54,707 nucleotides of DNA from an uncultured Candidatus Saccharibacteria bacterium (GTDB taxonomy: Bacteria; Patescibacteriota; Minisyncoccia; Phycocordibacterales; PALSA-1337), in the NCBI GenBank assembly GCA_964357605.1, contig CAYHLX010000006.1, positions 1-54,707 on the forward strand, read 5' to 3'. A program made the position numbers and the translations under genes. Position 1 is the first letter of the stretch. Every line of letters begins with the position of its first letter. Positions 6,455 through 27,475 of this stretch are shown here, in pieces. Under the pieces are notes generated by a model. It was not told where the DNA came from, did no database searches, and was given only the letters and a program-made list of their open reading frames with translations.

Positions 6455-7229
6455 TCCCAGAGGTAAGGATCGCTTTCCTCTCTCTTTAAAAATTGCCCTA
6501 GCTATTTTGGCAATAGTGGTGATTCTGCATATCTTTTTTCCTACTTCTTTCTCTACTTTCTTTCTAAGTCTTGCTAGGCCATTTTGGAATTTAGAAAAAG
6601 AAGTGAAATATGGTGAGAATTTTGTAAATATTTCCGAGCTGATCAGTGAGAAAGAACAATTACAGAAAAAGCTGGCTGAAAACGAAGCTCGGTATTTGCA
6701 AGTAGATCTGATTTATAAAGAAAATTTGGAATTCAAAAAAATATTTGATAGAGAGAGGGAAGGGGATTTTGTGCTGGCTCAAGTTCTCAAAAAACCACCA
6801 TTTTCGGCTTATGATATTTTTGTTTTAGATATTGGCTCTAAACAAGAAGTGGAGATTGGGGATCGAATTTACGCTTCAGGATCTGTACCTCTAGGAGAGA
6901 TTGTAGAAGTCTCAACCAATATTTCTAAAGCTAAATTGTACTCCTCTTCAGGGGGAAAATATACGGTGCTCATTGGTGACAATCATATAGAAACTATTGC
7001 TACTGGTAAGGGAGGAGGTTCTTTTGAGGCTAGTGTTCCTCGGGATACAAAAATTTTAAAAGGTGACCACGTTATTATTCCATCTCTTTTTGATTCTTTT
7101 CTTGGAACAGTTCAAGATATTATTTCCATACCATCCAATCCTTTTTCAACCGTGCTTTTCAACCAGCCTTTGAATATTTATGAACTAAGATTTGTGGAAG
7201 TTGATACAGCTACTATTAAAGAAAAATAA
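6432..7229 (+). CDS. mreC: Rod shape-determining protein MreC
   Basis: N-terminal TM, coiled coil, LDIGSKQEVEIGD beta region; position after mreB. Confidence 0.85.
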   Translation: MSYVLKSSPRGKDRFPLSLKIALAILAIVVILHIFFPTSFSTFFLSLARPFWNLEKEVKYGENFVNISELISEKEQLQKKLAENEARYLQVDLIYKENLEFKKIFDREREGDFVLAQVLKKPPFSAYDIFVLDIGSKQEVEIGDRIYASGSVPLGEIVEVSTNISKAKLYSSSGGKYTVLIGDNHIETIATGKGGGSFEASVPRDTKILKGDHVIIPSLFDSFLGTVQDIISIPSNPFSTVLFNQPLNIYELRFVEVDTATIKEK

Positions 7230-9747: not shown

Positions 9748-11202
9748 ATGGCTTCACTAGAAGAGCTTCGTAAAACCAGATTAGAAAAACTGAAGCTTTT
9801 GAAAGAAGCGGGCATGGATCCGTATCCAAGCAAAATTCCTAGAACTTTTTGTCTTGGTGATGCCAAAAAGAATTTCTTTGAATATGAAAAGTCTGGTCAA
9901 GAAGTTTCTCTGGCTGGACGTATCATGGCGATCCGTGGACAGGGAGCGATTCTTTTTGTCGTTCTTTATGATGGTAGAGGAAAGTTTCAAGCAGTTTTTA
10001 AAAAGGATCAAGTAGAAGAAAAACTTTTCAAACTTTTTACTGACGCAGTTGATATTGGAGATTTTATCTCTGTTACGGGTATATTTTTCACTACTCAAAA
10101 AGGGGAGCAGAGTCTTGCGGTCAAAACTTGGACCATGGCGACCAAGGCTATTCTCCCTTTGCCGGAAAAATGGCATGGGATTCAGGATACGGATGAAAGG
10201 TACCGCAAGCGTTACCTAGATATTTTAATGAACGAAGAGATTCGTGATCTTTTGGTCAAGAAAAGTAAGTTTTGGGACGTGACACGTAGTTTTATGAAAG
10301 ATCACGGTTTTTTGGAAGTGGAAACACCGACTTTAGAAGTGACCACCGGGGGAGCAGAGGCGACTCCTTTCAAGACTCATCACAATGATTACGATCTTCC
10401 AGTTTATTTGAGAATTTCAGTGGGAGAATTGTGGCAGAAGAGACTCATGGCGGCTGGTTTCCCCAAAACTTTTGAGATTGGCAGGATCTATCGTAATGAA
10501 GGTTCTAGCCCAGAGCACCTACAGGAGTTTACCAATATGGAATTCTATTGGTCTTTTGCAGACTATGAAGATGGGATGGAGTTGGTGAGAGAGATGTACA
10601 TGAGGATTGCCCAGGAGGTTTTTGGGACGACCAAATTTACCACTAGGGGACACACTTTTGATCTAGCTCACGAATGGACGAAGATTGATTATACCGAAGA
10701 AATTAAAAAACAGACCGGGATTGATATTCTCAAAGCTACTGATAAAGAAATTTCTAAAAAACTAGATAGTTTAAAGGTGAAGTATGAAGGTACTAATCGC
10801 GAGAGACTTATAGATACTCTCTGGAAATACTGTCGAAAAAATATTTCTGGCCCAGCTTTTCTTGTGAATCATCCGCTGGCGGTGGCTCCTCTCGCTAAGA
10901 CTGTTTCAGGAAAGCAGGTGGCTCAAATGTTTCAGCCAATCCTCGCTGGGAGTGAAGTGGGTAGAGGTTATTCTGAATTGAACGATCCAGTAGATCAAAA
11001 AGAAAGATTTGAAGCTCAGCAGAAGTTAGTAGATGCCGGAGATACCGAAGCCATGATGGCGGATCATGAATTTGTGGAAATGTTGGAACATGGCATGCCA
11101 CCTACATGCGGATTTGGATTTGGTGAAAGACTTTTTGCTTTTTTGGCAGATAAACCAACAAGGGAATTACAAATGTTTCCGCTCATGAGGCCGAGGGAGT
11201 AG
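9748..11202 (+). CDS. lysS: Lysine--tRNA ligase (class II)
   Basis: YRKRYLD, EIGRIYRNEG, GMPPTCGFGFG. Confidence 0.96.
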   Translation: MASLEELRKTRLEKLKLLKEAGMDPYPSKIPRTFCLGDAKKNFFEYEKSGQEVSLAGRIMAIRGQGAILFVVLYDGRGKFQAVFKKDQVEEKLFKLFTDAVDIGDFISVTGIFFTTQKGEQSLAVKTWTMATKAILPLPEKWHGIQDTDERYRKRYLDILMNEEIRDLLVKKSKFWDVTRSFMKDHGFLEVETPTLEVTTGGAEATPFKTHHNDYDLPVYLRISVGELWQKRLMAAGFPKTFEIGRIYRNEGSSPEHLQEFTNMEFYWSFADYEDGMELVREMYMRIAQEVFGTTKFTTRGHTFDLAHEWTKIDYTEEIKKQTGIDILKATDKEISKKLDSLKVKYEGTNRERLIDTLWKYCRKNISGPAFLVNHPLAVAPLAKTVSGKQVAQMFQPILAGSEVGRGYSELNDPVDQKERFEAQQKLVDAGDTEAMMADHEFVEMLEHGMPPTCGFGFGERLFAFLADKPTRELQMFPLMRPRE

Positions 11203-11221
11203 ATTCTATATTAAAGGCCTT

Positions 11222-11252
11222 AAACAGACATTCCGTGAGGAATGCTTGTTTT
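11222..11252 (+). terminator. Intrinsic terminator after lysS
   Basis: AAACAGACATTCC-GTGA-GGAATGCTTGTTTT hairpin. Confidence 0.65.
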
Positions 11253-11264
11253 CGTATTAAGAGC

Positions 11265-11295
11265 TTAACCCCAAGTTATCCCCCTTTTATCCACA
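11265..11295 (+). promoter_or_regulatory. DnaA box cluster upstream of mraZ
   Basis: Perfect TTATCCACA at 11287-11295 plus degenerate TTATCCCCC (11276) and TTAACCCCA (11265) at 11-bp spacing. Confidence 0.55.
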
Positions 11296-11319
11296 TTTCT
11301 ATTACTACGCCTAAACATT

Positions 11320-11388
11320 AAAGTGGTATATAATATCCATTAAGTGGGATGAAGTGGTACGAAATAAAAAGACCACTTTTACTCCACC
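11320..11388 (+). promoter_or_regulatory. mraZ promoter and putative MraZ-binding GTGG repeats
   Basis: AAGTGG occurs three times (two copies 10 bp apart) around TATAAT, plus an inverted CCAC pair 10 bp apart; resembles the GTGG-repeat MraZ operators known at dcw clusters. Confidence 0.65.
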
Positions 11389-11393
11389 AGCAT

Positions 11394-11834
11394 ATGCTAA
11401 TCGGAGAATATCGACATGTTATCGACAACAAAAACCGGTTGTCGCTTCCGGCCAAATTCCGCAAGGAAACCGGAAAAAAAGTAGTCATAACCTCCGGTTT
11501 GGACTCCTGTCTCTTTGTCTTTCCAACAAAGTCCTGGGAATCAATCACCGCTCGTCTCTCATCACCTGATTCTTCCATGCTTCAGGCTGATAGTAGAAGT
11601 TTCAATCGCTACCTTCTCGGAGGAGCCGTTGAAGTTGATGTAGATGCTTTGGGTAGAATGCTCATCCCAGAATACTTGGTCGATCGCGCTAAACTTGGAC
11701 GCAATGTCGTGATCGTCGGAGTTAGGGAGAGAGCTGAAATCTGGGACGAGGCACGTTGGGATGCGTATCGCGCGGAGATAGAAAAAAAGGCCGATGCTCT
11801 AGCTGAAAAGCTTGGGGAAAGCGGCATGATCTAG
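11394..11834 (+). CDS. mraZ: Transcriptional regulator MraZ
   Basis: MLIGEYRHVIDNKNRLSLPAKFR, DALGRMLIP; heads the dcw cluster. Confidence 0.95.
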   Translation: MLIGEYRHVIDNKNRLSLPAKFRKETGKKVVITSGLDSCLFVFPTKSWESITARLSSPDSSMLQADSRSFNRYLLGGAVEVDVDALGRMLIPEYLVDRAKLGRNVVIVGVRERAEIWDEARWDAYRAEIEKKADALAEKLGESGMI

Positions 11835-11839
11835 CGCCT

Positions 11840-12745
11840 ATGTTTGTTCACGAATCAGTTCTTTTAAATGAATCAATAGACTCGCTCAATATTTCTTCGG
11901 GAAAAACATATCTCGATGGAACGTTGGGAAGTGCTGGGCACGCTGCTCTAGCTCTAGAAAGAGCCAAGAGGGATCTAACGGTTATCGGTCTCGATAGAGA
12001 CGAGGATGCTTTAAGGCGCTCTAAAAAGAGATTAGAAAGAGCTGCTGATGACCGGAGTAAAATTCATCTCAAGCTTTCAAGTTACGGTGACCTAGACAAA
12101 GCTCTATCGGAAATTGGCATAGATAAGGTGGATGCTTTGATGCTGGATTTAGGTTTATCTTCAGATCAATTTGAAACATCGGGAAGAGGATTTAGTTTTA
12201 AGAAAGATGAACCCCTCATTATGACTTTTGCCGAAAAACCTGATGAACATGACCTCACGGCCAAATACATTTTAAATAATTGGCAGGAGCAAAGCATTGC
12301 CGATGTGATCTATGGATACGGTGAAGAAAGATATGCCTTGCGTATTGCCCGCAAGATTATTTCATACAGAGAAAGAAAACTGATAGAGACCACTCATGAG
12401 TTAGTGGAGATCGTGAATAGTGCAGTGCCATCAAGCTATAGACACGGAAGAATTCATCCAGCGACCAGAACTTTTCAGGCTTTGAGAATCACTGTGAATG
12501 ATGAGCTTAATACCTTGAAAGAGGGTTTAAAGAAGGGATTTGAAAGACTAAGAAGTGGGGGAAGGATGGCCGTCATTTCATTTCACAGCCTAGAAGATAG
12601 AATAGTCAAAAATTTTTATAAAGAAAAAGTAGTAGAAGAGAAAGCCAAAATTATTACCAAAAAACCAATTGTTCCATCTGAAGAAGAAATAGAGAGAAAC
12701 CCCAGATCTAGAAGTGCCAAGCTCAGAGTCTTAGAAAAAAATTAA
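11840..12745 (+). CDS. rsmH: 16S rRNA m4C1402 methyltransferase RsmH
   Basis: HESVLL, DGTLGSAGH, ATRTFQALRI, NPRSRSAKLR. Confidence 0.96.
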   Translation: MFVHESVLLNESIDSLNISSGKTYLDGTLGSAGHAALALERAKRDLTVIGLDRDEDALRRSKKRLERAADDRSKIHLKLSSYGDLDKALSEIGIDKVDALMLDLGLSSDQFETSGRGFSFKKDEPLIMTFAEKPDEHDLTAKYILNNWQEQSIADVIYGYGEERYALRIARKIISYRERKLIETTHELVEIVNSAVPSSYRHGRIHPATRTFQALRITVNDELNTLKEGLKKGFERLRSGGRMAVISFHSLEDRIVKNFYKEKVVEEKAKIITKKPIVPSEEEIERNPRSRSAKLRVLEKN

Positions 12746-12749
12746 AAAA

Positions 12750-13079
12750 ATGACCAAAGCCATTACAATCACATACACCGTCCTTCACCGCTACCGTGAA
12801 AGGCTTTTTGCCATACTGTTAGCTGCTATTTTGATTGCTTTGGCCTCTTACGTTTTTTTGATCCATAAGGCTGTAGTAAATATCGTAGCTAGAGAAGCGA
12901 CGGTAGAGAAGATCAGTGCCAAATCAAGCAAAGTCGCTGAACTTGAAGGTAAATACTTTACGATAAAAAATTCTATTACTCTAGAAGTGGCCCACCAAAA
13001 AGGTTTTAAAGATGTCTCGATCAGTAACTATATTTCTAAAAAATCTGTTACGGCGATGGCATCTCAACATGAACTCTAG
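12750..13079 (+). CDS. FtsL-like bitopic membrane protein
   Basis: Single TM plus coiled coil, between rsmH and ftsI. Confidence 0.6.
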   Translation: MTKAITITYTVLHRYRERLFAILLAAILIALASYVFLIHKAVVNIVAREATVEKISAKSSKVAELEGKYFTIKNSITLEVAHQKGFKDVSISNYISKKSVTAMASQHEL

Positions 13080-14793
13080 TTTTATATTAAGAATTCGTTT
13101 TCTACTAGTAGTTTGTTGTCTTTTCGCCTTGATTATCATCGGAAAATTGTATGACGTGCAGATCGTTAGTGGGGAGTCGTATCTCAAAAAAGCTGATGCT
13201 CAGTATGTGGCACCCTCAATTTCTGTTTTTGATAGAGGTTCTATTTTTCTAGAAACAAAAACAGGTACCAGAGTGGCGGCAGCGATAGTGAAGGATGGGT
13301 ACACTATTGTGATGAACCCCAAGTTACTCACTGATCCAGAAAATGCCTATGTGGCTATTTCTCAATACATAGATCTTGACCCCAAGCTTTTTGCAGAAAA
13401 AGCGGCTAAAGCCAAAGATGATGACCAGTATGAAGAACTAGCTAAAAAAGTGGAGAGAGAAGTTGGGGAATCCATCGCGGCTCTCAAGATCACGGGCATT
13501 GATGCTTACAAAGAAAATTGGAGAGTTTACTCTGGAAATTCTTTATTTTCTCATACTCTAGGAATTGTGGGATATGATTCAGGAAATAAAGTGGCTGGAC
13601 GTTATGGTCTGGAGAGAAATTATGAAAATGTTCTTTATCGTACTGGACAAAAAGAAAGCGTAAATTTTTTCGCGGAACTTTTTGGTGGAGTCCAAAATGG
13701 TGTTTTTAGTGGATCGGACAAAGAGGGAGATATTGTTACTTCCCTCGATCCCACCCTTGGTAGTTATCTGGAGGAGATTCTTTCGGATACAAAAGATTTG
13801 TGGGGTTCTGATTCTATTGGGGGAATTATTATGGATCCACACACAGGAGCGATTTATGCGATGTCGGCTTTGCCAGCCTTTAATCCCAACGAACTTTCCA
13901 GTGTGAAAAACCCAAAAATCTTTTCCAATCCTCTCGTGGAAGATGTTTATGAAATGGGATCAATTATCAAACCTTTGACGATGGCGGCGGGTATTGATAG
14001 TAAGGTAATTACCAAGAACTCCATGTACGATGATACCGGGTTTCTCATGTTAGACGAAAAGAAAATCTCTAATTTTGACGGTCGAGCTCGCGGTCGAGTT
14101 TCCATGCAAGAGGTTTTGAGTCAGTCTCTAAACATTGGAGCGGCTTATATTGCTTTGAAGTTGGGAAATGAGGAATTTCGAAGATATTTTACCAGTTTTG
14201 GAATCGGAGAGAAAACTGGTATCGATCAGCCCAATGAAGCACGGGGGATCGTAGATAACTTAAGTAGCAAAAGACAGATTGAACATGCGACGGCTTCGTA
14301 TGGACAGGGAATTGCGATGTCGCCCATCTCTACCATCCGTGCTCTTTCTGTGATTGCTAATGGTGGTAAACTGGTTCAACCACATTTGGTGAAGGAGATT
14401 AATTATATTGACGGCACTGTAAAGATGATAGCTTCTGAACCTGGTTTGCAAGTTATCCAGAAGGAAACATCTGACGATGTGACAAACATGTTGATTGAAG
14501 TGGTTGATAAGGCAATTGCTAAGGCACATCCAGATATAAAGATGGAACATTATAGTATTGCGGCCAAAACAGGGACGGCTCAGATTGCTAATCATGGGAA
14601 TGGCGGTTATTATAGTGACAGGTATCTACATTCGTTTTTTGGCTATTTTCCGGCCTATAACCCCCGTTTTATTGTCTTCTTGTACCAGATCAACCCCAAA
14701 GGAGCTCAATACGCCTCTGAAACCCTTGTAGATCCCTTTGTTGACCTGGCCAAATTTATTATAAATTATTACGAAATTTCTCCCGATAGATAA
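13069..14793 (+). CDS. ftsI: Cell-division class B penicillin-binding protein (FtsI)
   Basis: EMGSIIK, SLN, KTGT; dcw position; ATG 13069 chosen. Confidence 0.88.
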   Translation: MNSSFILRIRFLLVVCCLFALIIIGKLYDVQIVSGESYLKKADAQYVAPSISVFDRGSIFLETKTGTRVAAAIVKDGYTIVMNPKLLTDPENAYVAISQYIDLDPKLFAEKAAKAKDDDQYEELAKKVEREVGESIAALKITGIDAYKENWRVYSGNSLFSHTLGIVGYDSGNKVAGRYGLERNYENVLYRTGQKESVNFFAELFGGVQNGVFSGSDKEGDIVTSLDPTLGSYLEEILSDTKDLWGSDSIGGIIMDPHTGAIYAMSALPAFNPNELSSVKNPKIFSNPLVEDVYEMGSIIKPLTMAAGIDSKVITKNSMYDDTGFLMLDEKKISNFDGRARGRVSMQEVLSQSLNIGAAYIALKLGNEEFRRYFTSFGIGEKTGIDQPNEARGIVDNLSSKRQIEHATASYGQGIAMSPISTIRALSVIANGGKLVQPHLVKEINYIDGTVKMIASEPGLQVIQKETSDDVTNMLIEVVDKAIAKAHPDIKMEHYSIAAKTGTAQIANHGNGGYYSDRYLHSFFGYFPAYNPRFIVFLYQINPKGAQYASETLVDPFVDLAKFIINYYEISPDR

Positions 14794-14805
14794 GGTTTAA
14801 TTTTC

Positions 14806-16068
14806 ATGAAATCATTTCTAAAAGATATTCTCGTTGCTATTCTCGAGTTTGAAGCTCGGGCTGTGCTCAAAAAGTACAGACCGACTATTATTGCTATTAC
14901 CGGTAGTGTTGGTAAGACATCGACCAAAGATGCTATTTATTCTGTCTTGTCTAGAACGGGTCATGTGCGAAAAAGTGAGAAAAGTTTCAATAGTGAAATC
15001 GGTGTCCCTCTTACGATCTTGGGTTGTCAAAATGCTTGGAGCAATCCTGTCCTTTGGCTGAAGAATATTTTTCAGGGTCTAGAGTTGATTTTTTTTAAAT
15101 CCACTTATCCAGACTGTCTAGTCTTGGAAGTTGGAGCCGATAAACCTAGTGATATCAGCAATCTGGCTGAATGGTTAAAACCGCATATCGTGGTAATCAC
15201 TAAGGTAAGTGATGTACCTGTGCATGTAGAATTCTTTCCTTCAGCGGAAGCCTTGCTTAAAGAAAAAGCTTTTCTGGTGAAATCTTTGCGTAAAGATGGT
15301 ACTCTAGTTCTTTATGCTGATGATGCCAAAGTTCTATCTTTAGGTAAGGGCATGTCTCAAAAGATCATTACTTTTGGAATGACAAATTCTGCTACTATTA
15401 CTGGTACAAATGATTCGATTGTCTACGAGAGTGGTAGGCCGGTGGGTATTAGTTTCAAATTAAACTATGAAGGGAACAGCGTTCCGGTGGTCATTAAAGG
15501 CGTTTTAGGTAGCCATCATATTTACCCTCTGATTGCCGCTGCTTCGGTGGCTTTAGCGCGAAAAGTTCCTTTATCTGAGATCGTTAGTAAACTTTCGGAA
15601 CATGTGGCTCCCAAAGGAAGAATGAATATTATCAAAGGTATAAATGACAGTATCCTTATTGATGATACTTACAATTCTTCACCCGATGCGCTTCAGGAAG
15701 CTTTAAACACTCTTTCTAAAGTTGAAACTTCTGGTAAAAAGATTGCGGTACTTGGCGACATGTTAGAACTCGGCAAATTTTCGGTTGAGGAACATAAAAA
15801 AGCGGGGGAGCGCGCTTCTCAAGTGGCCTCACTAGTTGTCTCTGTGGGACAAAGGTCTAAAGAGATGCCGGGAGTCTCGGCTTCTTTTGAATCTTCTTTG
15901 CAAGCTCTGGACTTTCTGAAAGACAAGGTGGGTCAGGGAGATTTGGTGTTGGTCAAAGGTTCGCAATCTATCCGCATGGAACATATTGTGAAAGGCTTGA
16001 TGCTAGAGCCAGAGAAGGCATACGAGTTGCTGGTGCGTCAGGAGCCAGAGTGGCTTGCGAAGAAGTAG
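14806..16068 (+). CDS. murF: UDP-MurNAc-tripeptide--D-Ala-D-Ala ligase
   Basis: ITGSVGKTSTK, DDTYNSSP, LGDMLELG, LVKGSQ. Confidence 0.93.
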   Translation: MKSFLKDILVAILEFEARAVLKKYRPTIIAITGSVGKTSTKDAIYSVLSRTGHVRKSEKSFNSEIGVPLTILGCQNAWSNPVLWLKNIFQGLELIFFKSTYPDCLVLEVGADKPSDISNLAEWLKPHIVVITKVSDVPVHVEFFPSAEALLKEKAFLVKSLRKDGTLVLYADDAKVLSLGKGMSQKIITFGMTNSATITGTNDSIVYESGRPVGISFKLNYEGNSVPVVIKGVLGSHHIYPLIAAASVALARKVPLSEIVSKLSEHVAPKGRMNIIKGINDSILIDDTYNSSPDALQEALNTLSKVETSGKKIAVLGDMLELGKFSVEEHKKAGERASQVASLVVSVGQRSKEMPGVSASFESSLQALDFLKDKVGQGDLVLVKGSQSIRMEHIVKGLMLEPEKAYELLVRQEPEWLAKK

Positions 16069-17835: not shown

Positions 17836-19998
17836 ATGAAAGAGAAATTTTTAAAACCATATAATCCTGCGGAGACCGAAGATCGGATACGAGATCTTTG
17901 GGATAAAAGTGGCTATGCCAATCCAGACAGTCTGCCAGCTAGGCATCAAGAGCCATTTTCTATTGTTTTACCTCCTCCCAATGTTACAGGGAGTCTTCAT
18001 GCTGGACACGCTTTGACGGTGGCCATAGAAGATATCATGGTTCGTTATGCTCGTATGAAAGGGAAGAAGGCCCTCTGGATCCCCGGTACAGATCATGCGG
18101 CGATTGCGACTCAGTCAAAGGTGGAAAAGGAGCTCGAAAAAAAGGAAGGTAAGAAACGTCGCGATTTTTCTCGAGAAGATTTTGTGAAAAAAGTTGAGAA
18201 GTTTGCCGAAGAAAGTCACAATACCATTGTTAATCAGGTCAAAAGACTTGGGGCCTCTCTAGACTGGTCTAGGGAAGCCTTTACGCTCGATGAAAAAAGA
18301 AGTTTGGCTGTCCGCACCGCCTTCAAGAGAATGTATGATGATGGATTGATTTATAGAGGTTACCGGGTGGTGAACTGGGATCCAAAAGGTCAAACCACTA
18401 TCTCTGATGACGAGATCGTTTATGAAACCAGAAAAACTAAGCTCTATACTTTCAAATATGCTAAAGATATTCCTATTTCTATTTCTACCACTCGTCCTGA
18501 AACAAAACTCGGTGACACGGCTATTGCGGTTCATCCAGAAGACCCTAGATACCAGGAATATGTTGGCAAAGAATACGACACGGTTTTTGCCGGTGAACCG
18601 ATTCGTCTGAAGGTAATTGCTGATCTCGCCGTAGAGAAGGATTTTGGTACAGGAGCGTTGGGAGTGACGCCGGCTCATAGTACTGTGGATTGGGAAATGT
18701 CCCAAAGGCATGGCCTGACTCTAAAACAGGTGATCAATGAATTTGGAAAGATGACCGTTGGAGTCCATGGGGTGAAGGATAAGAAAACGGTTGAAGCTCG
18801 TGAAGCAGTCGTGGTTTGGCTTAAAGAACAGGGACTACTCGAAAAGGAAGAGGAGATTGAGCAAAATATTTCTATTGCAGAGAGAACGGGTGGGGTGATA
18901 GAGCCACTACCAAAATTGCAGTGGTTCGTGGGGGTGAATAGAAAATTTAAGAAGGGAGGTCAAGAAACTACTCTCAAAGAGTTGATGATCAAAGCGGTTA
19001 GTGAAAAACAAATTTCCATTCTTCCGGATCGTTTTGAAAAGGTTTATTTTAATTGGGTGGAGAACTTGCGGGACTGGTGTATTTCTAGGCAGATTTGGTA
19101 TGGTCATCGGGTGCCGGTGTGGTATCGGGGTGAAAAAATCCATTGTGAGATTGACGCCCCTATTGGAGATAGCTGGGTGCAGGATGAAGACACTTTGGAT
19201 ACTTGGTTTTCTTCTGGTTTGTGGACTTTCTCTACGCTTGGTTGGCCGGAAAAGACTAAAGATCTGAAAGAGTATCACCCTACGGCCGTCTTGGAGACCG
19301 GCCGGGACATTCTTTTTTTCTGGGTGGCTCGTATGATTCTCATGTCTACTTATCTTTTGGATGAAGTTCCGTTTAAAAATGTTTATCTACACGGTCTAGT
19401 TTTGGATGGTCAGGGTAGGAAACTTAGTAAATCTTTAGGTAATTTTATTGATCCTCTAGAAGTGGTGGAGAAATATGGAGCTGATGCTTATCGCATGTCC
19501 CTTATTGTGGGAGTTGGTCCGGGGAGTGATAGCAAGGTGGGGGAGGATAAGATTAAGGCTTATAAAAACTTTGCTAACAAGATCTGGAATGCGACTCGTT
19601 TTGTTCTTACTTCTGTAGAGGGGGCGGAAATTGAGCTTGATAAAAAACCTGAGCTTATTGATTCTCACCAAGCTCATATAGAGGAACTTCATAATACTCT
19701 GAAGGATGTGACTCTTGATATGGATAATTTTAGGTATTATTTGGCGGGAGAGAAACTCTACCACTATTTCTGGCATGTTTTTGCGGATAAAATCATAGAG
19801 GAGAGCAAGAGTGCTGTACTAGGCAATGATCCGAAGGCTAAACTTTCAGCACAGTGGATGCTTCTCTATATCTTGGCAACAACCATCAAAGCCCTACATC
19901 CCTTCATGCCATTTGTGACCGAAGAAATCTGGTCGGAGTTACCAATCAAAAACAAAACCCTGCTCATGGTGGAGAGGTGGGGGGGAATAAAGCTATGA
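17836..19998 (+). CDS. valS: Valine--tRNA ligase (lacks C-terminal coiled coil)
   Basis: PPPNVTGSLHAGH, DWCISRQIWYGH, DTWFSSGLW, KLSKS. Confidence 0.96.
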   Translation: MKEKFLKPYNPAETEDRIRDLWDKSGYANPDSLPARHQEPFSIVLPPPNVTGSLHAGHALTVAIEDIMVRYARMKGKKALWIPGTDHAAIATQSKVEKELEKKEGKKRRDFSREDFVKKVEKFAEESHNTIVNQVKRLGASLDWSREAFTLDEKRSLAVRTAFKRMYDDGLIYRGYRVVNWDPKGQTTISDDEIVYETRKTKLYTFKYAKDIPISISTTRPETKLGDTAIAVHPEDPRYQEYVGKEYDTVFAGEPIRLKVIADLAVEKDFGTGALGVTPAHSTVDWEMSQRHGLTLKQVINEFGKMTVGVHGVKDKKTVEAREAVVVWLKEQGLLEKEEEIEQNISIAERTGGVIEPLPKLQWFVGVNRKFKKGGQETTLKELMIKAVSEKQISILPDRFEKVYFNWVENLRDWCISRQIWYGHRVPVWYRGEKIHCEIDAPIGDSWVQDEDTLDTWFSSGLWTFSTLGWPEKTKDLKEYHPTAVLETGRDILFFWVARMILMSTYLLDEVPFKNVYLHGLVLDGQGRKLSKSLGNFIDPLEVVEKYGADAYRMSLIVGVGPGSDSKVGEDKIKAYKNFANKIWNATRFVLTSVEGAEIELDKKPELIDSHQAHIEELHNTLKDVTLDMDNFRYYLAGEKLYHYFWHVFADKIIEESKSAVLGNDPKAKLSAQWMLLYILATTIKALHPFMPFVTEEIWSELPIKNKTLLMVERWGGIKL

Positions 19999-20696
19999 AA
20001 CTATACTTTTTATTTCCTTTAATCTTACAAAAACTCATTTGGATTCCTACCCGCTTAATCCTTATTATTTTTGGACGTATCAAAATACGTGGACTAGAAT
20101 ATCTCAATGAGATACCCGGCAATATAATTTTTGCTTGTAATCATGCAAGTGAGATCGATCCATTTATTATTCCAGCCTCTCTACCATTCTGTTCTCGTTT
20201 TTCACCGCTTTTTTATGCCACACGTGAAAGATCATTTTATGATAGAAATGGTTGGCGCAAGTATCTCTTTGGGGGTTTATTCATAAATGCTTGGGGAGGA
20301 TATACAGCCATTGTTGGTCTGAACGACTATGAGAAATCATTAGTTAACCATATTACTATTGCACGTGATGGAGGTAGTTTTTGTATCTACCCTGAAGGTG
20401 GAATTACTAGTACCGGAAGACTACAACCAGCTAAGGGTGGTTTAGCATATTTGGCCGAGCGTGGTGATTGTATTATTATTCCAGTTGGTGTCTCTGGAAC
20501 ATTTCGTACACACTTTTCTGATTTCTTCCTAGGCAAGAGACATATTATTGTTAATTTCGGTAAGCCGATTACTCAGCAAGAATTACGTTCCCAAGTTATA
20601 CGTACACCAGAACTCGGCCTCCATGCTTATAAATTAGAAGCTGAATATGTTATGAGCAGGGTGGGGGAATTGTTGGAGCAGATACCTAGAAAGTAA
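19995..20696 (+). CDS. Lysophospholipid/1-acylglycerol-3-phosphate acyltransferase family (PlsC-like)
   Basis: NHASEID (HxxxxD), IYPEGG, KGGLAYLA; ATGA overlap with valS stop. Confidence 0.88.
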   Translation: MKLYFLFPLILQKLIWIPTRLILIIFGRIKIRGLEYLNEIPGNIIFACNHASEIDPFIIPASLPFCSRFSPLFYATRERSFYDRNGWRKYLFGGLFINAWGGYTAIVGLNDYEKSLVNHITIARDGGSFCIYPEGGITSTGRLQPAKGGLAYLAERGDCIIIPVGVSGTFRTHFSDFFLGKRHIIVNFGKPITQQELRSQVIRTPELGLHAYKLEAEYVMSRVGELLEQIPRK

Positions 20697-20738
20697 GAAA
20701 GATTTGAAGAATTACAGAAACATGCAATTTCGAAAGTT

Positions 20739-21665
20739 TTATTTTTTCAATTCTGTGATTTCCAAATAAGCACTAGATAGATCAGAAGTTAATTTGTCAA
20801 TCTTTTTATCCTGCTGCATACTATGAAGAATACTCCGTATTAGTAAAATTCCGAGAATTATAGTGACGAATAATGCACTTATACTAAATACTAATGTTTC
20901 ATAATATTTATTTGTAAGTAATATATTAGTTAGTATTAAAGCCCATAAAATAAAAATTACAATTTCTGCAGCTATGATTTTTATGTTAAAGAAATTGTAC
21001 TCAGTTATAGAATATGTTACAAAGATTAAAAATAATAAGAATCCAATATTATCAATACCTAAAAATAAGAAAATAGAAAAATGAGGAAGAATAAAACTAC
21101 TAAAGGCACTTATTGTTAAACTAGAAATCATGCCAATTAAAATGTATTTCAATTGATTTGCCTGATCTTTGTTGGTAGCCTTTCTTTTTGAATCTAATAT
21201 AATCCATAGCATGAAAAAAGCAGTAATTAAGTAGTAAATTGTATACATAGTTAAGCCTAATCCGTGTCCACCTAAGAAAATTCCACCCGGAAGAATTGTA
21301 TTATTATTAAGAATTATAAAATTTGTACAGTATGAACCTACAAAGAAAAATAAAGATATAGGTGCCAATAACAGAAATATTTTCTTACTGTATTGATTTT
21401 TTGTGATCACAAGAGCCCAAATTAAACCTAAGAATATTACTATTGAACCAAAGGCGTAAGTGCTTTTTAACCATAGAACCTCGGAAGATATTCCTGCCAT
21501 ATAACTTGCAAATGTCCATATTGCAGCAAACAATCCAATCAAAGAAAAGATTTGGTTAGGTAAACATCTTGGGTTTTGCATTAATACAAAAGTTCCTAGA
21601 GATATGTTAAAGAAGATAACTAGAATTAAAATCGTACCCATAGTCATTTGTAATGATTTTACCAT
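20739..21665 (-). CDS. Multi-TM sensor-like protein (histidine kinase N-terminal 7TM type) lacking a kinase domain
   Basis: Hydrophobic throughout; C-terminus parallels the sensor of the 23191 kinase but stops before the H-box. Confidence 0.75.
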   Translation of the reverse strand: MVKSLQMTMGTILILVIFFNISLGTFVLMQNPRCLPNQIFSLIGLFAAIWTFASYMAGISSEVLWLKSTYAFGSIVIFLGLIWALVITKNQYSKKIFLLLAPISLFFFVGSYCTNFIILNNNTILPGGIFLGGHGLGLTMYTIYYLITAFFMLWIILDSKRKATNKDQANQLKYILIGMISSLTISAFSSFILPHFSIFLFLGIDNIGFLLFLIFVTYSITEYNFFNIKIIAAEIVIFILWALILTNILLTNKYYETLVFSISALFVTIILGILLIRSILHSMQQDKKIDKLTSDLSSAYLEITELKK

Positions 21666-21721
21666 AATTTTTAGCTATAAATATGAGGGTTTTATATGGT
21701 ATAATTACTTATAATAAAAAC

Positions 21722-22504
21722 ATGTCTCACCACAGCTTTGATTTTAAAGGTAGAAAATTCGATTTAGTTTTAGAAAAATATATAGATCTAAAAGAAATCA
21801 ATCCCCATACAAAAAAAGAAATTAGTCAAGATATACATAGACTTCTTGCTAATTGTTGGGGTAGTTTTCCTGAGGACTTTGTCGAGCAACATATATTTTT
21901 TGGAGATAAAATGATTGTTGCTATAATTAATGGCAAATGTATCGGTCTTTGTGTCATGAGTATTAAGGAGGTTTTTGGTTTGAAAATTCACTATATAGAA
22001 TTTTTACTTGTAGATAAGGATTTTCAACAAGGAGGACTTGGTTCCTTCTTGTCATTTAAGATCCTTAAAGATGAATTAGTTAATAACTTCGCATATTTAT
22101 TACTTGGTAAATCTCTGGAAATATTTTTTATTACTCCCAATATTAGAGTTTTAAGTCACGCCACAAAATTTGCTAGTTTTGTGTACCCTAATCCATATCT
22201 AGCTAATAATGATGGTCAAGTAGAATTGGCTGATCAGCAGACTTGGGAAATTGCCTTGGAATTACTTAAAAGGAGTGATAATCCATACAGAGATCTCAAT
22301 AGAGAGGGACTGGTTCTTACGGGGTCATATTCCAATACTCCATGGTTAATATATAATAATGATAATGCCCCATGGCATAGTAATGATAAAATAAATCTTT
22401 TTGCAAAGAGATATTTGGGCTATCATTCCGGTCAAGATAAAGAGCTTATGGTCAGATTAAACATAAATCTATTTTCCGTAATTAAATATTTATTTAAAAA
22501 ATAA
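21722..22504 (+). CDS. GNAT-fold acyltransferase-like protein
   Basis: YIEFLLVDKDFQQGGLGSFL is GNAT motif A (QxxGxG); ATG 21722 is 6 nt after TATAAT. Confidence 0.7.
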   Translation: MSHHSFDFKGRKFDLVLEKYIDLKEINPHTKKEISQDIHRLLANCWGSFPEDFVEQHIFFGDKMIVAIINGKCIGLCVMSIKEVFGLKIHYIEFLLVDKDFQQGGLGSFLSFKILKDELVNNFAYLLLGKSLEIFFITPNIRVLSHATKFASFVYPNPYLANNDGQVELADQQTWEIALELLKRSDNPYRDLNREGLVLTGSYSNTPWLIYNNDNAPWHSNDKINLFAKRYLGYHSGQDKELMVRLNINLFSVIKYLFKK

Positions 22505-22505
22505 T

Positions 22506-23186
22506 ATGTTACTTAATATTATAATTATAATAGTCTTAATTTTTTTAATTACATATTGTTTTTGGAAATTCTTCTTTTTTTACCGTGATCCAGAAAGGAA
22601 TATCCCTGTAGGAGAAAATATTGTTTCTCCAGCAGATGGCACTATAGTCTATATAAAGAAAATTGAAGGTAATATTGTACCTATTTCAATCAAAAATAAA
22701 AAGATTATTAAACTGGAAGAAATTTTTAAATATAATCCTAATACGTCACAATTTTCGTACCTAGTCGGTATTTTTATGCACCCTACTAGCGTTCATGTCA
22801 ATCGTGCTCCAATTTCCGGTACGATTGAAAAGATTGTATATACTAAAGGCAAGAATTTACCAATGACTTTTATGTGGTGGAGGGTATTATTGAGGATTAA
22901 ACCATATGAGTTATATAGTAATCATATTCTTCAGAACGAGAGAAATACTATTTTATTTAGGGGAAGTATCTCTGTTTTTATTGTTCAAATCGCTGATATT
23001 TATGTAAATAAAATAGAATGTTGGGTAAAAGAATTGCAGCAGGTGATAAAAGGAGAGCGTGTTGGAATGATAAAAATGGGTTCTCAGGTTGACTTACTAT
23101 TTCCATCTTTATCGATATCTAATATTGCCGTTGAGGTTGGTCAAAAAGTGAAAGCAGGTGAGACGATCATAGCACACATAAAGTAA
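22506..23186 (+). CDS. psd: Phosphatidylserine decarboxylase family proenzyme
   Basis: FFYRDPER, VSPADG, VHVNRAP, NERN, GMIKMGSQVDL (GS autocleavage site). Confidence 0.9.
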   Translation: MLLNIIIIIVLIFLITYCFWKFFFFYRDPERNIPVGENIVSPADGTIVYIKKIEGNIVPISIKNKKIIKLEEIFKYNPNTSQFSYLVGIFMHPTSVHVNRAPISGTIEKIVYTKGKNLPMTFMWWRVLLRIKPYELYSNHILQNERNTILFRGSISVFIVQIADIYVNKIECWVKELQQVIKGERVGMIKMGSQVDLLFPSLSISNIAVEVGQKVKAGETIIAHIK

Positions 23187-23190
23187 ATAT

Positions 23191-24813
23191 ATGAATTTAA
23201 ATATAATAGTTTCGATACTTACACTTTCCCTAACATTTCTTTTGAGTATTGTTGTATTACTTGAAGATCATAAGAATAAAACCAATAGATACTTTTTCCT
23301 GTTAGGTTTTTCAATCGTCTTATGGATACTAAATAATATTTTGGCCGATATTGTACATGGGTATAGTTCAGCGCTTTTTTGGGCTAGGCTAGCAATAATT
23401 TGGGTAGCCTTACTACCAGTGTTATTTAATGGACTTATAACTGAGCTTTATTTTTCTCAAGATAAGCTTTATGAAAAAAAGTACAAATTAATACGCTACT
23501 TATCAATTATAATTGTTGGGATAATTGTATTGTTTAGCCAATCTCACTTTAATATAGATTCTATTACTTTACAGCAGAGTGGGATTGATTATCAACCCGG
23601 ATTACTTTATTACCTTTTATTTTTTCAGCTTCTAATAGGTTTTGGTTTTGGTTTATTCTATCTTTTTAAAATCTTTCATTTATCTAGAGACTCAAAAAGG
23701 TCACAATCTGGTTTTATCATAGCAGGGTCTCTAGTGACGGTTTTTCTTGGAATCGTTACCAATATTATTTTTCCTTTACTTGGCTACAGCTATCTTAATG
23801 TTATTGGTCCGCCGAGCGTTCTATTTTTTGTTGGTTTTACTGCAATTGCCGTTCTTAAGCATCATTTATTTAATGTAAAAGTTATCGCTACAGAATTGCT
23901 TGTTTTTTCCTTATGGCTCATTATTCTATGGCGTACTTTGGTTTCAATAAATCTACAAGAAGTGTCAATTAATGGGGGACTACTGATCCTCACTGTTATT
24001 ATCGGCATCTTCCTCATCCGATCCGTCGTGAAGGAAGTTAAACAGCGCGAAAAGATTCAACTTCTCGCTACTGACTTGCAGAAGGCAAATGACCGTCTGA
24101 CGGAACTTGATAAGCAGAAATCTGAATTCGTTTCTTTTGCTACGCATCAACTTCGTGCGCCACTGACAGCTATGAAAGGATATGCCTCACTCATTCTAGA
24201 AGGTGATTTAGGAAAACTATCCAAACAGATCCGAGATGCCATCACCCGTATTTATGATTCATCTAATACTTTGACAAATATTGTGGATGATTATTTAAAT
24301 ATTTCACGTATTGAACTAGGCACCATGAAATACTTATTTGAGGATGTTGACCTAAAAGATCTAGTAAAAAATGTTATAGCTGAATTAAAACCAAGTATAG
24401 AAAAAAGTAAATTAGCTTTTTCTTTCAATGCTGATCAGAATAAAAAATTTGTGGTTCGAGCAGATAAAGATAAATTCAAGCAAATAATTTCCAACCTAAT
24501 TGATAATTCTATGAAATACACTCCATCAGGTGCAGTCACGGTGTCTCTGGAGAAAAAGCCAGAGAATGGTGAAAACAAAATTGTCTTTTCTGTAAAAGAT
24601 ACCGGTATTGGTATCGATCCTCTAGTAATGCCAAAGCTTTTTGCCAAGTTTTCTCGTGCCGAAAATGGCAATAGACAGAATATCCATGGTACCGGTCTCG
24701 GACTCTTTGTGGCGAAGGAAATCGTTTCATCACATAAAGGGAAAATCTGGGCTGAATCAAAAGGAGAAGGGAAGGGTTCCGCTTTCTTTGTCGAACTAGA
24801 AGAAGTTATCTAA
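23191..24813 (+). CDS. Membrane sensor histidine kinase with 7TM-type N-terminal domain
   Basis: H-box ATHQLRAPLT, N-box NLIDNSMKY, DTGIG, GTGLGL. Confidence 0.93.
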   Translation: MNLNIIVSILTLSLTFLLSIVVLLEDHKNKTNRYFFLLGFSIVLWILNNILADIVHGYSSALFWARLAIIWVALLPVLFNGLITELYFSQDKLYEKKYKLIRYLSIIIVGIIVLFSQSHFNIDSITLQQSGIDYQPGLLYYLLFFQLLIGFGFGLFYLFKIFHLSRDSKRSQSGFIIAGSLVTVFLGIVTNIIFPLLGYSYLNVIGPPSVLFFVGFTAIAVLKHHLFNVKVIATELLVFSLWLIILWRTLVSINLQEVSINGGLLILTVIIGIFLIRSVVKEVKQREKIQLLATDLQKANDRLTELDKQKSEFVSFATHQLRAPLTAMKGYASLILEGDLGKLSKQIRDAITRIYDSSNTLTNIVDDYLNISRIELGTMKYLFEDVDLKDLVKNVIAELKPSIEKSKLAFSFNADQNKKFVVRADKDKFKQIISNLIDNSMKYTPSGAVTVSLEKKPENGENKIVFSVKDTGIGIDPLVMPKLFAKFSRAENGNRQNIHGTGLGLFVAKEIVSSHKGKIWAESKGEGKGSAFFVELEEVI

Positions 24814-24866
24814 AAGACGATGCCCCAACTTTTGGTCGGAGCATGTTCGTAAAGGTCAGTGGATTT

Positions 24867-25049
24867 CTATAAAAGCCAAAACTGGATGGTCTGAGGCTTT
24901 TTGGGAATAGGTTTCTCAGAAACCACATCCCTCAGCTCTTGTCTGAGCACCTTAAGCCTTTCCTTCTTGGCTTTGACGATGTCCTTCGTCAAGGGGACCC
25001 CACCATCAAACGGCGATGGCTCAGTCCAATCGATTTCAATTTTTCTCAT
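24867..25049 (-). CDS. Hypothetical 60-aa protein
   Basis: Fills the intergenic gap; TGaTATATT 9 nt before ATG. Confidence 0.5.
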   Translation of the reverse strand: MRKIEIDWTEPSPFDGGVPLTKDIVKAKKERLKVLRQELRDVVSEKPIPKKPQTIQFWLL

Positions 25050-25067
25050 ACTGCCACTAATATATCA

Positions 25068-25520
25068 CTATTTGACTAGTTCGTCAAGCACCACTTTGAC
25101 ATCTTCTCCCTCGGCTTTACCTTTCAATTCCTTCATTATCGTGCCCATAAATTGCCCCATCTTCTTGGGATCTATTGGACCCTCTTTTTTGAGTTTCTTT
25201 TCTACAATTTTCTTGATTTCCTCTCTGCTCATAGAAGCGGGTAGAAATTCATTGAGAACGGCCATTTCTTTCTTTTCTTTTGTCGCTAGATCTTTTCTTC
25301 CACCTTTTTCAAATTGTTCGATAGAATCCTTTCTTTGCTTTACGCCTTTCTTGATAATCGTGAGGACATCTTCATCCTTAAGAAGAGGTGCTGAACTTTT
25401 CTTAGCAATAAGTTCGTTGGAGAAGGCGGCTTGTAAACCACGCAGAACCTCTAGACGAAGTACGTCGTGAGCCCTCATAGCATCTTTAATTTGTTCCTTG
25501 ATATTTTCATGTATTGTCAT
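25068..25520 (-). CDS. GatB/YqeY domain protein
   Basis: IKDAMRA, VKQRKDSIEQFEKGGRKDLA, MGQFMG. Confidence 0.92.
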   Translation of the reverse strand: MTIHENIKEQIKDAMRAHDVLRLEVLRGLQAAFSNELIAKKSSAPLLKDEDVLTIIKKGVKQRKDSIEQFEKGGRKDLATKEKKEMAVLNEFLPASMSREEIKKIVEKKLKKEGPIDPKKMGQFMGTIMKELKGKAEGEDVKVVLDELVK

Positions 25521-26961: not shown

Positions 26962-27144
26962 ATGAATATTTTTAATAAAACAATCAGAGCAGAAAAAAAA
27001 TTTAAGAAGGTTGCAGAAGAGCAACTTGATGAAAACGTGGTAATTATGGAATCTCTTCGTGATTATGATGAAGGAAAAAAACACATTTCAACCTCTAAAC
27101 TTGAAACACGTCTGCCTAATATACGAGTTACTTCTGGAGCGTAA
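26962..27144 (+). CDS. Small protein, putative antitoxin partner of the downstream Doc/Fic gene
   Basis: 60 aa, directly upstream of and overlapping a Doc-like gene; TGGTATAAT promoter upstream. Confidence 0.5.
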   Translation: MNIFNKTIRAEKKFKKVAEEQLDENVVIMESLRDYDEGKKHISTSKLETRLPNIRVTSGA

Positions 27145-27475
27145 ACTTGTCTCTTTCCCACTTACACAAGAAGGAGAAAACAAGATACAATCTCTCGTTA
27201 GCAGTATAACTAGTATTTATTTTGGACAGGAAATATATAAAACAGCTGAAGAAAAAGCTGTAGCTTATCTGTACTTCTTAATCAAAGACCACCCTTTTAC
27301 TGATGGAAATAAAAGAACTGCCTGTCTGACTTTTGAGACGGTGTGTAAACTTAATGGTTTGCAAGCGGATTATAAAGATTACTCTCTAGATGTGGTAGCG
27401 ATATTTATTGAGAAAATTCAGGAACCAGATCATCAAATGGTGATAAAAATTATTTCAGATATGCTTTTTGAGTAA
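27065..27475 (+). CDS. Fic/Doc (death-on-curing) family protein
   Basis: HPFTDGNKRTA Fic motif of the Doc type; start uncertain (27059-27068). Confidence 0.88.
   Translation: MMKEKNTFQPLNLKHVCLIYELLLERKLVSFPLTQEGENKIQSLVSSITSIYFGQEIYKTAEEKAVAYLYFLIKDHPFTDGNKRTACLTFETVCKLNGLQADYKDYSLDVVAIFIEKIQEPDHQMVIKIISDMLFE

Follow-up and report, generated by a model that had tools for sequence, protein, structure and literature searches.

A candidate make-and-sense cassette in Patescibacteria: a GNAT-fold acyltransferase, a Psd-family decarboxylase and a 7TM histidine kinase whose sensor varies with the enzyme beside it

Contig CAYHLX010000006.1 (54,707 nucleotides, analysed at full length and hereafter called the window) of an uncultured Candidatus Saccharibacteria bacterium (assembly GCA_964357605.1) carries a compact cluster in which the gene of a GNAT-fold acyltransferase is followed by those of a phosphatidylserine decarboxylase (Psd)-family enzyme and a histidine kinase (HK) with a seven-transmembrane (7TM) sensor. 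We think it probable, though not by a wide measure, that these genes form a make-and-sense cassette: the GNAT would build an acyl amphiphile, the product of the next gene would tailor it and the matched 7TM kinase would sense it. Two findings of sequence comparison carry this reading, namely that the GNAT gene recurs before a 7TM kinase gene in distant families with different enzymes between the two, and that the sensor domain of the kinase varies jointly with that enzyme. The source genome has 692 kb in 21 contigs, is 99.5% complete and has a guanine plus cytosine (GC) content of 0.40; the stretch is also present in groundwater metagenomes.

Loci with a member of the GNAT family were examined, 19 in all: the window, L001-L009 on genome contigs and L030-L038 from a sample of 401 genomes of the phylum. 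For a downstream kinase 15 of the 19 can be assessed, L001, L007, L031 and L038 ending too early, and 13 of these 15 have a HisKA_7TM kinase downstream on the same strand, so that the linkage of GNAT and 7TM kinase that the original prediction supposed is indeed recurrent. No kinase follows the GNAT in L033 and in L009, the latter from a Myxococcales metagenome-assembled genome (MAG). The order GNAT then 7TM kinase was seen in several families with unrelated flanks (L008, L030, L032-L037). The slot between GNAT and kinase is occupied by Psd in five loci (window, L002, L003, L004, L008), by an S-adenosylmethionine (SAM) methyltransferase in five (L001, L005, L006, L007, L030) and by a protein with three transmembrane helices (3TM) in seven (L031-L037), the last being followed by a ThiF-like enzyme in five and by a methyltransferase in four. 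The methyltransferase of L001 is partial (53 residues before the contig ends) and 98% identical to that of L005. Organism labels of the MAGs are unreliable: L001 is titled Gammaproteobacteria and L005 Saccharibacteria. Full-length family members occur in 10 of the 401 phylum genomes and in none of the seven listed genomes of the same order; the distribution is therefore patchy.

The genes that accompany the family bear out the fatty-acyl or lipid context that had been proposed. FadD11-like long-chain ligases are found in seven of the 19 loci and alpha/beta hydrolases in four, and to these come PlsC and a fusion of acyl carrier protein (ACP) with GNAT. PlsC occurs in five of the 19, all in the window's clade (syntenic in L001, L002, L003 and L005), never alongside FadD, and is absent from the distant cassettes. 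The most distant member, 34% identical (L009 1561-7972), is without kinase or Psd and lies between a patatin-like gene and a class-III aminotransferase, with a cluster of cyclopropane-fatty-acid synthase, DUF1365 and amine oxidase adjoining.

Several cassettes show peculiarities of their own. Upstream of genes for an alpha/beta hydrolase, FadD, GNAT, Psd and a kinase of the 7TM-GAF type, L008 encodes a 610-aa fusion of HisKA_7TM with an asparaginase-family domain (920-2752); this fusion could act as an amidase under the guidance of a sensor domain of that type. The order in L007 4033-7298 is ThiF, a distant GNAT-family paralog (281 aa), a short 7TM-like open reading frame (ORF), GNAT, methyltransferase and the contig end, which suggests that the synthase was duplicated inside a cassette. 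In L034 a 337-aa protein with HATPase_c_2 and a STAS-like DUF4325 (5540-6553) is found between the 3TM gene and ThiF. The Psd match of L002 (6797-7367) is broken into two pieces that lie in different frames, residues 80-109 being absent, and the kinase match of L004 (1252-3417) is in two pieces about 480 nt apart; these splits may be frameshifts, insertions or assembly errors.

A module of synthase and receptor predicts that the receptor varies with the enzyme that finishes its ligand, and such co-variation is found, which supports this part of the original prediction. Compared with L005, of the methyltransferase type, the window has only 32% identity in the sensor, against 71% in the linker, 65% in the kinase, 58% in the GNAT and 61% in YqeY. 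The window's sensor is 68% (L002), 54% (L003) and 48% identical to those of Psd-type loci, and 32% and 29% identical to those of methyltransferase-type loci, whereas the kinase half is 61-66% identical to those of L002, L003 and L005 whatever the tailoring type. The sensor tree follows the tailoring type (support 100/100 for the Psd clade, 87/98 for the methyltransferase clade), while the kinase tree puts L005 within the window's clade (95/96) and the GNAT tree likewise goes by clade. In a post hoc approximately unbiased (AU) test with the sensor data the grouping of the kinase tree was rejected (p 0.0043), as was that of L034 with L035 (p 2e-6).

The same pattern is seen among the ThiF-type loci. 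Between L036 and L037 the GNAT (88.5% identity), the 3TM protein (81%), the HK middle (89%) and the kinase (80%) are conserved, whereas ThiF (42%), the methyltransferase (24%) and the sensor (38%) have diverged. Alleles are common across families, L034 going with L037 and L035 with L036, and the DNA identity changes at sharp borders, from 0.81-0.84 to 0.33-0.48 and back to 0.72-0.82. Thus GNAT and kinase domain follow the kinship of the organisms, and tailoring enzymes and 7TM sensor vary jointly. This co-variation supports a sensor that would read the product of the enzyme.

Base composition marks out the same unit. The segment 20739-24030 has a GC content of 0.299, the lowest of 1255 sliding 3.3-kb windows across the genome, and spans exactly the kinase-less 7TM paralog, the GNAT, Psd and the sensor half of the kinase, its 3' border being the sensor/kinase boundary within the kinase gene. 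The individual values are 0.274 (7TM paralog), 0.308 (GNAT), 0.305 (Psd) and 0.321 (HK sensor part), compared with 0.38 for PlsC, 0.372 for the kinase part of HK and a genome mean of 0.401 (standard deviation 0.025). The AT-rich block that had been noticed after valS is hence real and extreme, but it starts past the PlsC gene and stops in the kinase gene instead of extending to 24813.

The GNAT belongs, as judged from its homologs, to a small undescribed family and is the predicted conserved core enzyme of the cassette. Its ORF could start at 21683, the homologs favouring a start at 21722. The Pfam match is weak (Table 1). Only 25 close proteins were found, all unnamed and about 260 aa long, and an exhaustive search of 1.84 billion proteins gave 147 representatives at E <=0.001 and 43 at E <=1e-30. 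The AlphaFold 2 (AF2) model (pLDDT 88) has a GNAT core, and comparison by Foldseek, with a probability of 1.00 to NatD (E about 1e-6), YhbS and Naa50, agrees with the predicted fold. By structure many GNATs were matched (Z 10-11.7, root-mean-square deviation 2.8-4.1 over 130-180 residues); about 145-170 of the 260 residues superpose on acetyltransferases and the remainder is a strongly conserved insertion of about 90 residues. The pyrophosphate of acyl-CoA is bound in the GNAT superfamily by the motif Q/R-x-x-G-x-G/A, and Q115-Q-G-G118-L-G120 agrees with this consensus, with Q115 invariant and G120 at least 90% conserved among 15 sequences. Sequence searches of PDB with the family profile gave generic GNATs only, at E 0.002 or worse, and the ESM Atlas only unnamed GNAT-like clusters.

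A specific likeness to LuxI or FeeM, as had been suggested, was not found: PF00765, PF21926 and PF13444 gave no match at E up to 0.1, and hhalign of the family profile with the FeeM-like protein from L070 gave a probability of 0.2%. TofI (3p2h) comes at rank 50 of the structure search with Z 9.5, inside the spread of generic GNATs, and FeeM is not among the listed matches. Natural fusions point to the company that the enzyme keeps. The exhaustive protein search gave a GNAT-methyltransferase fusion (P0032) and, more distant, an ACP-GNAT fusion (P0139); an earlier search of a word-indexed library, weak evidence in itself, had given no GNAT fusion among longer proteins. By analogy the GNAT might have been a PanZ-like maturation factor of the pyruvoyl enzyme, which was rejected as a general role because the family also pairs with, and fuses to, methyltransferases. 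Seryl-tRNA-dependent transfer after the logic of MprF or Fem was rejected on chemistry, because a carboxyl-linked ester leaves nothing to decarboxylate.

Psd-family enzymes cleave themselves at a Gly-Ser site, usually of the form GS[ST], which yields their pyruvoyl group. The window's Psd matches PF02666 far above the cut-off of 22 bits, its residues 22-223 corresponding to positions 5-198 of the 198 of the profile, and is preceded by a hydrophobic helix (residues 1-19). G192-S193 (in MGSQVD), H92 and H97 are invariant in all four cassette Psds compared, and the third residue of the cleavage site is Q (GSQ) in place of S or T. All 14 listed Psd/Asd models of NCBIfam remain under their cut-offs, the best being NF003685 with 149 against 183 bits. 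In PDB the sequence alone had no match at E 0.01, and the profile gave insignificant matches only, to the beta chain of E. coli Psd (E 1.6) and to tryptophan decarboxylase (E 1.8). The enzyme thus resembles short membrane-anchored bacterial Psds in its strong Pfam match, conserved Gly-Ser site and N-terminal membrane helix, and differs from them in that it falls below all NCBIfam equivalogs, that PS synthase and CdsA are lacking in its genome and that the same slot elsewhere holds a methyltransferase.

The PlsC-like protein (PF01553, cut-off 23 bits) has one N-terminal hydrophobic helix and the motifs of the family, HX4D (HASEID, residue 50) and PEG (residue 133). It does not score as a PlsC equivalog (TIGR00530, 32.7 bits against a cut-off of 102.95), and its best NCBIfam matches, all below cut-off, are to the acyltransferase part of Aas-type acyl-[ACP]--phospholipid O-acyltransferases. 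A general linkage of the flanking PlsC gene to the cassette is not supported: it was seen only in one clade, with shared valS and YqeY synteny, and in one relative of the same order.

Psd and PlsC are single copies in the genome (tblastn), both in this cluster. By profile searches the genome lacks CdsA (PF01148) and CDP-alcohol phosphatidyltransferase (PF01066; PssA/PgsA), for which the controls were positive in 13 of 14 reference genomes, as well as PlsY, ACP, the AMP-binding ligase (FadD) and CoaE; over all lipid-pathway searches the controls were positive in 8 to 13 of the 14. Psd is above cut-off in three of the 401 genomes of the phylum, and near the other two matches (G188 and a 1.7-kb contig of G395) no cassette genes were found. 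This Psd would therefore not be part of a normal pathway to phosphatidylethanolamine (PE), and bulk synthesis of PE is unlikely, because CdsA, PssA/PgsA, PlsY, ACP, FadD and CoaE are lacking in the genome and Psd is rare in the phylum.

The kinase has the architecture HisKA_7TM-HisKA-HATPase_c, all three domains scoring above their cut-offs, with nine hydrophobic segments in the sensor half, H319 in the H-box HQLRAP and the motifs DTGIG (G1) and GTGLG (G2). Its paralog has about nine hydrophobic helices and a coiled linker and ends just short of the position of the H-box; residues 27-308 are 27% identical to residues 22-308 of HK, there is no H-box and no Pfam match, and the gene is at the same place in L001, L002 and L005. 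For HisKA_7TM no ligand is known; two reviews list the domain only.

One of the two response regulators of the genome is of the OmpR type, with its own kinase adjoining. The other, a CheY-like receiver of a single domain and 135 aa, lies within a pilus operon (contig C11, about 10823-15257, locus L039) of the order pilB (571 aa, T2SSE+MshEN), receiver, pilT (352 aa) and pilC (T2SSF). Relatives of this receiver, 36-40% identical, adjoin the cassette singly in L032, L035 and L038 and as two copies in L030. Type IV pili may, speculatively, be regarded as a candidate output via this receiver in the pilB-pilT-pilC operon. On contig C3 (62508-65184; L040 5509-8185) the genome's other HisKA_7TM kinase is separated by 20 nt from a PLD gene of the Cls-like kind. 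This PLD gene is without the N-terminal membrane part and scores 251.9 against an equivalog cut-off of 290; its enzyme could in principle exchange headgroups.

Of 151 genomes sampled from the phylum, 72 contain HisKA_7TM. To see the domain in other settings, 40 further loci were hand-picked, not drawn at random, from 105 matches by high score and sufficient flank, and annotated by tblastn. A FeeM/LuxI-like N-acyl amino acid synthase lies directly upstream of the kinase in three of the 40 (L070, confirmed by Pfam with PF13444, PF21926 and PF00765; L046 and L054, by tblastn), and a PF00155 enzyme lies upstream in two, in one case accompanied by FadD and an ABC transporter. The position before HisKA_7TM kinases is thus shared by acyl-condensing enzymes of three unrelated types. 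L054 repeats the architecture of the window, with a methyltransferase, the synthase and HK in this order and divergent kinase-less 7TM paralogs. A ThiF-like gene is present within about 2 kb upstream in 10 of the 40 and a single-domain receiver in 11. PlsC was found in one, L072, from the same order as the window, with overlapping genes for PlsC, a Rossmann protein of 376 aa and the kinase. A general tie of these kinases to phospholipid enzymes was rejected: it holds for both kinases here, but for Psd or Cls in none of the 40 and for PlsC in that single locus. The 362-aa gene that follows the L046 kinase has no solved relative.

On the make-and-sense reading the acyl group that the GNAT would move onto an acceptor derived from an amino acid is most likely a long fatty one, and the next gene would tailor the amino-acid end of the resulting amphiphile. 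Here the tailoring enzyme would be the membrane-anchored Psd-family decarboxylase; in relatives it would be the SAM methyltransferase, or the 3TM protein with the ThiF-like adenylating enzyme, with or without a methyltransferase. All three kinds of enzyme could act on a carboxylate or amine end. The membrane-embedded 7TM domain of the kinase, whose gene is presumably co-transcribed, would recognise the product, as would probably the paralog without a kinase; this product may act between cells, and joint exchange of tailoring enzyme and sensor domain between lineages would give rise to 'dialects'.

In Psd enzymes the pyruvoyl mechanism requires the amino group to be free, and the conversion of N-acyl-serine to N-acyl-ethanolamine that had been offered as an example conflicts with it. 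Most likely the Psd-family enzyme would decarboxylate a lipid-tethered alpha-amino acid with a free amine, candidates being Ser, Lys or Orn acylated on the side chain, or (lyso)PS that was scavenged and is yet to be acylated. A side-chain-acylated substrate would resemble PS in being a lipid-tethered free alpha-amino acid; alternatively decarboxylation might precede acylation. A fuller version of the scheme strikes us as unlikely when all its parts are taken together: Patescibacteria would use lipid-amide 'dialect' signals, made by GNAT acylation of an amino acid whose carboxylate is neutralised by decarboxylation, methylation or adenylation, with a Psd-family enzyme recruited off PS for the purpose; HisKA_7TM would read the product, and the receiver of the pilus operon would steer type IV pili and thereby attachment to host or kin.

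A number of points weigh against a make-and-sense cassette. By fold the GNAT is generic, without specific likeness to acyl-signal synthases, and, with AMP-binding ligase, ACP and CoaE all lacking, no system for an acyl donor is recognisable in the genome, so that the donor of the GNAT is here unexplained. HisKA_7TM is common in the phylum, most sampled loci are without a recognisable synthase, and a GNAT of this family, Psd or Cls was found at none of the 40 other loci. The window is without a response regulator, the two of the genome lying elsewhere, and the PlsC linkage is mostly limited to a single clade with shared flanks. Most neighbours were named by tblastn with our own query set, partly by PDB matches, so that neighbours unrelated to the queries are unnamed. 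As to the co-variation, the groups of the AU test were named with the trees already in view, and the independent swaps number only some two to three. The swapped genes are contiguous, so that enzyme and sensor could have travelled jointly in one neutral recombination tract. The co-variation would also fit a sensor of a lipid of the cell's own membrane and is no proof of signalling from cell to cell.

This last point leads to an alternative that we hold to be doubtful yet worth weighing, an operon for remodelling of membrane lipids with a homeostatic sensor of the own membrane and no molecule sent to other cells. Psd would turn scavenged (lyso)PS into PE, PlsC would re-acylate lysolipids, and the GNAT would N-acylate or N-acetylate an amine headgroup or make an aminolipid like OlsB/OlsA. 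Such an operon would suit a genome without de novo phospholipid synthesis whose sole Psd and sole PlsC are here, as it would the second HisKA_7TM kinase beside the Cls-like PLD gene and the same-order relative with its operon of PlsC, 376-aa protein and HK, which has no GNAT or Psd; the joint variation of sensor and enzyme fits it equally well. Cells belonging to the candidate phyla radiation (CPR) are reported as rich in lysolipids and taking lipids from neighbours (excerpt of PMC7242380), by uptake mechanisms given as unknown (excerpt of PMC11665869), and in Chlamydia a Psd, a lysophospholipid acyltransferase and an acyl-ACP synthase act on host lipids (excerpt of PMC5693948). However, Psd is nearly absent from the phylum and hence no general answer to scavenged lipids; a slot that is interchangeable with methyltransferase or ThiF is odd for bulk supply of PE; identities of 24-42% inside flanks of 80-89% are typical of recognition loci, not of housekeeping lipid enzymes; and neither Psd nor Cls lies beside any of the other 40 7TM kinases. 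Nor are aminolipid operons known to be coupled to kinases.

That the genes share no pathway at all and are neighbours by descent or operon packing seems improbable to us. The GNAT would then be an ordinary N-acetyltransferase (of protein, antibiotic or polyamine), Psd would decarboxylate PS in the ordinary way and the kinase would sense the envelope with no relation to either. It is true that the closest loci, L002, L003 and L005, also share the valS and YqeY flanks, so that synteny is partly inherited, that the top structural matches of the GNAT are N-terminal and aminoglycoside acetyltransferases, and that HisKA_7TM kinases are widespread without these enzymes. Yet the order of GNAT and 7TM kinase is kept in distant families with unrelated flanks, GNAT and methyltransferase are fused in nature, enzyme and sensor domain are replaced jointly between conserved flanks, and the gene gaps are just 1 and 4 nt. 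More improbable still is a peptide system, its product being either a ribosomal peptide that is lipidated or an adenylated compound like microcin C, in which the GNAT acylates the peptide or gives self-immunity, ThiF, methyltransferase and decarboxylase modify the C-terminus and the kinase regulates or senses. Biosynthesis of microcin C does combine ThiF-like, methyltransferase, decarboxylase and GNAT functions, a radical SAM/SPASM gene is present in L035, and ABC transporter genes lie near the cassette in L032 and L036. But the gaps of the window (1, 4, 42 and 56 nt) leave no room for a precursor gene, its cassette is without ThiF, radical SAM gene and exporter, FadD11-like ligases indicate fatty acids, and the small conserved ORF of the ThiF-type loci encodes the 3TM membrane protein and no leader-core peptide.

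A make-and-sense cassette would have precedents in other bacteria. In the pairs LuxM/LuxN, AinS/AinR, CqsA/CqsS and LqsA/LqsS the gene of a synthase that uses an acyl thioester lies beside a histidine kinase gene, and the kinase binds the hydrophobic product with a multi-helix membrane domain, there being no periplasmic sensor domain. The combination of synthase and polytopic membrane kinase would be the same here (CqsA/CqsS also appears in the excerpt of PMC7567580). The differences are that another enzyme family and another sensor family (HisKA_7TM, PF16927) are used, that a tailoring enzyme and a kinase-less paralog are added and that no hybrid receiver or Hpt relay was seen. Within the CPR, 18 LuxI-homolog and 51 CqsA-homolog genes adjacent to sensory kinases have been listed in silico and read as possibly complete quorum-sensing systems (Bernard et al. 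2020, mSystems, excerpt of PMC7567580). These adjacencies share with our cassette a putative acyl-signal-type synthase directly beside a transmembrane sensor kinase; since the synthase here is not a homolog of LuxI/FeeM or CqsA, it would be missed by such a homology search. A Psd-family tailoring enzyme or joint swapping of enzyme and sensor is not mentioned in the excerpt of PMC7567580.

The variation has its parallel in loci that define pherotypes. The agrBDCA locus of Staphylococcus is of the same kind as comQXPA of Bacillus. In the latter the N-terminal membrane domain of ComP varies and its cytoplasmic domain is conserved, giving pherotypes (excerpt of PMC4008528). In both, as here, the signal-modifying enzyme (here a putative one) and the N-terminal membrane sensor vary and the cytoplasmic kinase domain is conserved; unlike there, where the signals are ribosomal peptides, no precursor gene is present, and the polymorphism, which there lies between strains within a species, is found here between genera and families of organisms that are uncultured. 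OlsB/OlsA and GlsB/GlsA combine a GNAT-superfamily N-acyltransferase with a PlsC-family O-acyltransferase and make phosphorus-free lipids from a fatty acyl donor and an amino acid. Our locus likewise holds an enzyme of each of these families. OlsB and GlsB belong to PF13444, which the window's GNAT does not match, and those pairs are not known to have a decarboxylase or a coupled kinase; moreover a divergent gene separates PlsC from the GNAT here, and distant cassettes are without PlsC. N-acyl-cyclolysine (ACL) signalling of Bacteroidota (Linares-Otoya et al., via excerpts of PMC13419125 and PMC13080023) is a precedent for acyl transfer combined with modification of the amino-acid end, and it is on this logic that the GNAT would work with ThiF, methyltransferase or Psd in the several variants. 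The receptor there is a LuxR-family repressor where here it would be a membrane kinase, and the putative tailoring enzyme here is a decarboxylase, not a cyclising enzyme. A literature search, within one library, on Patescibacteria with Psd, lipid acyltransferases or quorum sensing gave no paper on the cassette. New are the GNAT family, a Psd-family enzyme that fills the tailoring slot and evidence that the AT-rich block as a whole is the unit of exchange.

The features of the locus are collected in Table 1. All five genes that the original prediction had placed here (PlsC-like, divergent 7TM paralog, GNAT, psd and 7TM kinase) are at their predicted positions, and the gaps of 1 nt between GNAT and Psd and of 4 nt between Psd and HK, read straight from the sequence, agree with it.

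Table 1. Features of the cassette and its immediate surroundings, in window coordinates
Feature	Position	Strand	Basis
valS (valyl-tRNA synthetase), context only	17836..19998	+	best solved relative ValRS 1gax, E 5.7e-172 (phmmer vs PDB)
PlsC-family (lysophospholipid-type) acyltransferase, 233 aa	19995..20696	+	PF01553, 55.4 bits
Kinase-less 7TM paralog of the kinase sensor	20739..21665	-	BLASTP to HK, E 1e-18
Divergent intergenic region between 7TM paralog and GNAT, 56 bp	21666..21721	.	TATAAT-like hexamer inside
GNAT-fold acyltransferase, 260 aa	21722..22504	+	PF00583, 23.4 bits; AF2 model
Psd-family pyruvoyl-type decarboxylase proenzyme, 226 aa	22506..23186	+	PF02666, 161.5 bits
HK sensor half: HisKA_7TM and two further helices, residues 1-280	23191..24030	+	PF16927, 48.1 bits
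HK linker, DHp (H-box His319) and catalytic ATPase half	24031..24813	+	HisKA 55.8, HATPase_c 93.3 bits
Terminator-like hairpin between convergent kinase and YqeY genes	24820..24844	-	pattern scan, consensus match only

The stop codon of valS and the ATG of the PlsC gene share an ATGA overlap, and the spacers flanking the 7TM paralog are 42 and 56 nt. Housekeeping genes flank the cluster: cmk, DoxX and valS precede it, and YqeY, RmuC and L21 follow. The pattern scan found six terminator-like hairpins in the region against 3.4 expected. The promoter scan found 23 candidates against 25.0 expected in shuffles; they are not enriched and no promoter is claimed. Downstream of L21 a 138-aa ORF of the Fic/DOC family (27059-27475) is unrelated to the cassette, and a 189-aa ORF of low complexity with a TTG start (24901-25470, + strand), on the opposite strand over YqeY, is most likely no gene.

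Patescibacteria account for much of the diversity of bacteria; they live in attachment to other cells and are unable to make lipids of their own. The cassette is a cloneable candidate for the study of two questions, their recognition of host or kin and their handling of lipids (for lipids, excerpt of PMC11665869). It offers a new acyltransferase family and a Psd-family enzyme whose substrate is probably not PS, and would be a first handle on what the widespread but ligand-less HisKA_7TM domain detects. Its paired alleles of enzyme and sensor, of the Psd, methyltransferase and ThiF types, may be regarded as a natural experiment in specificity.

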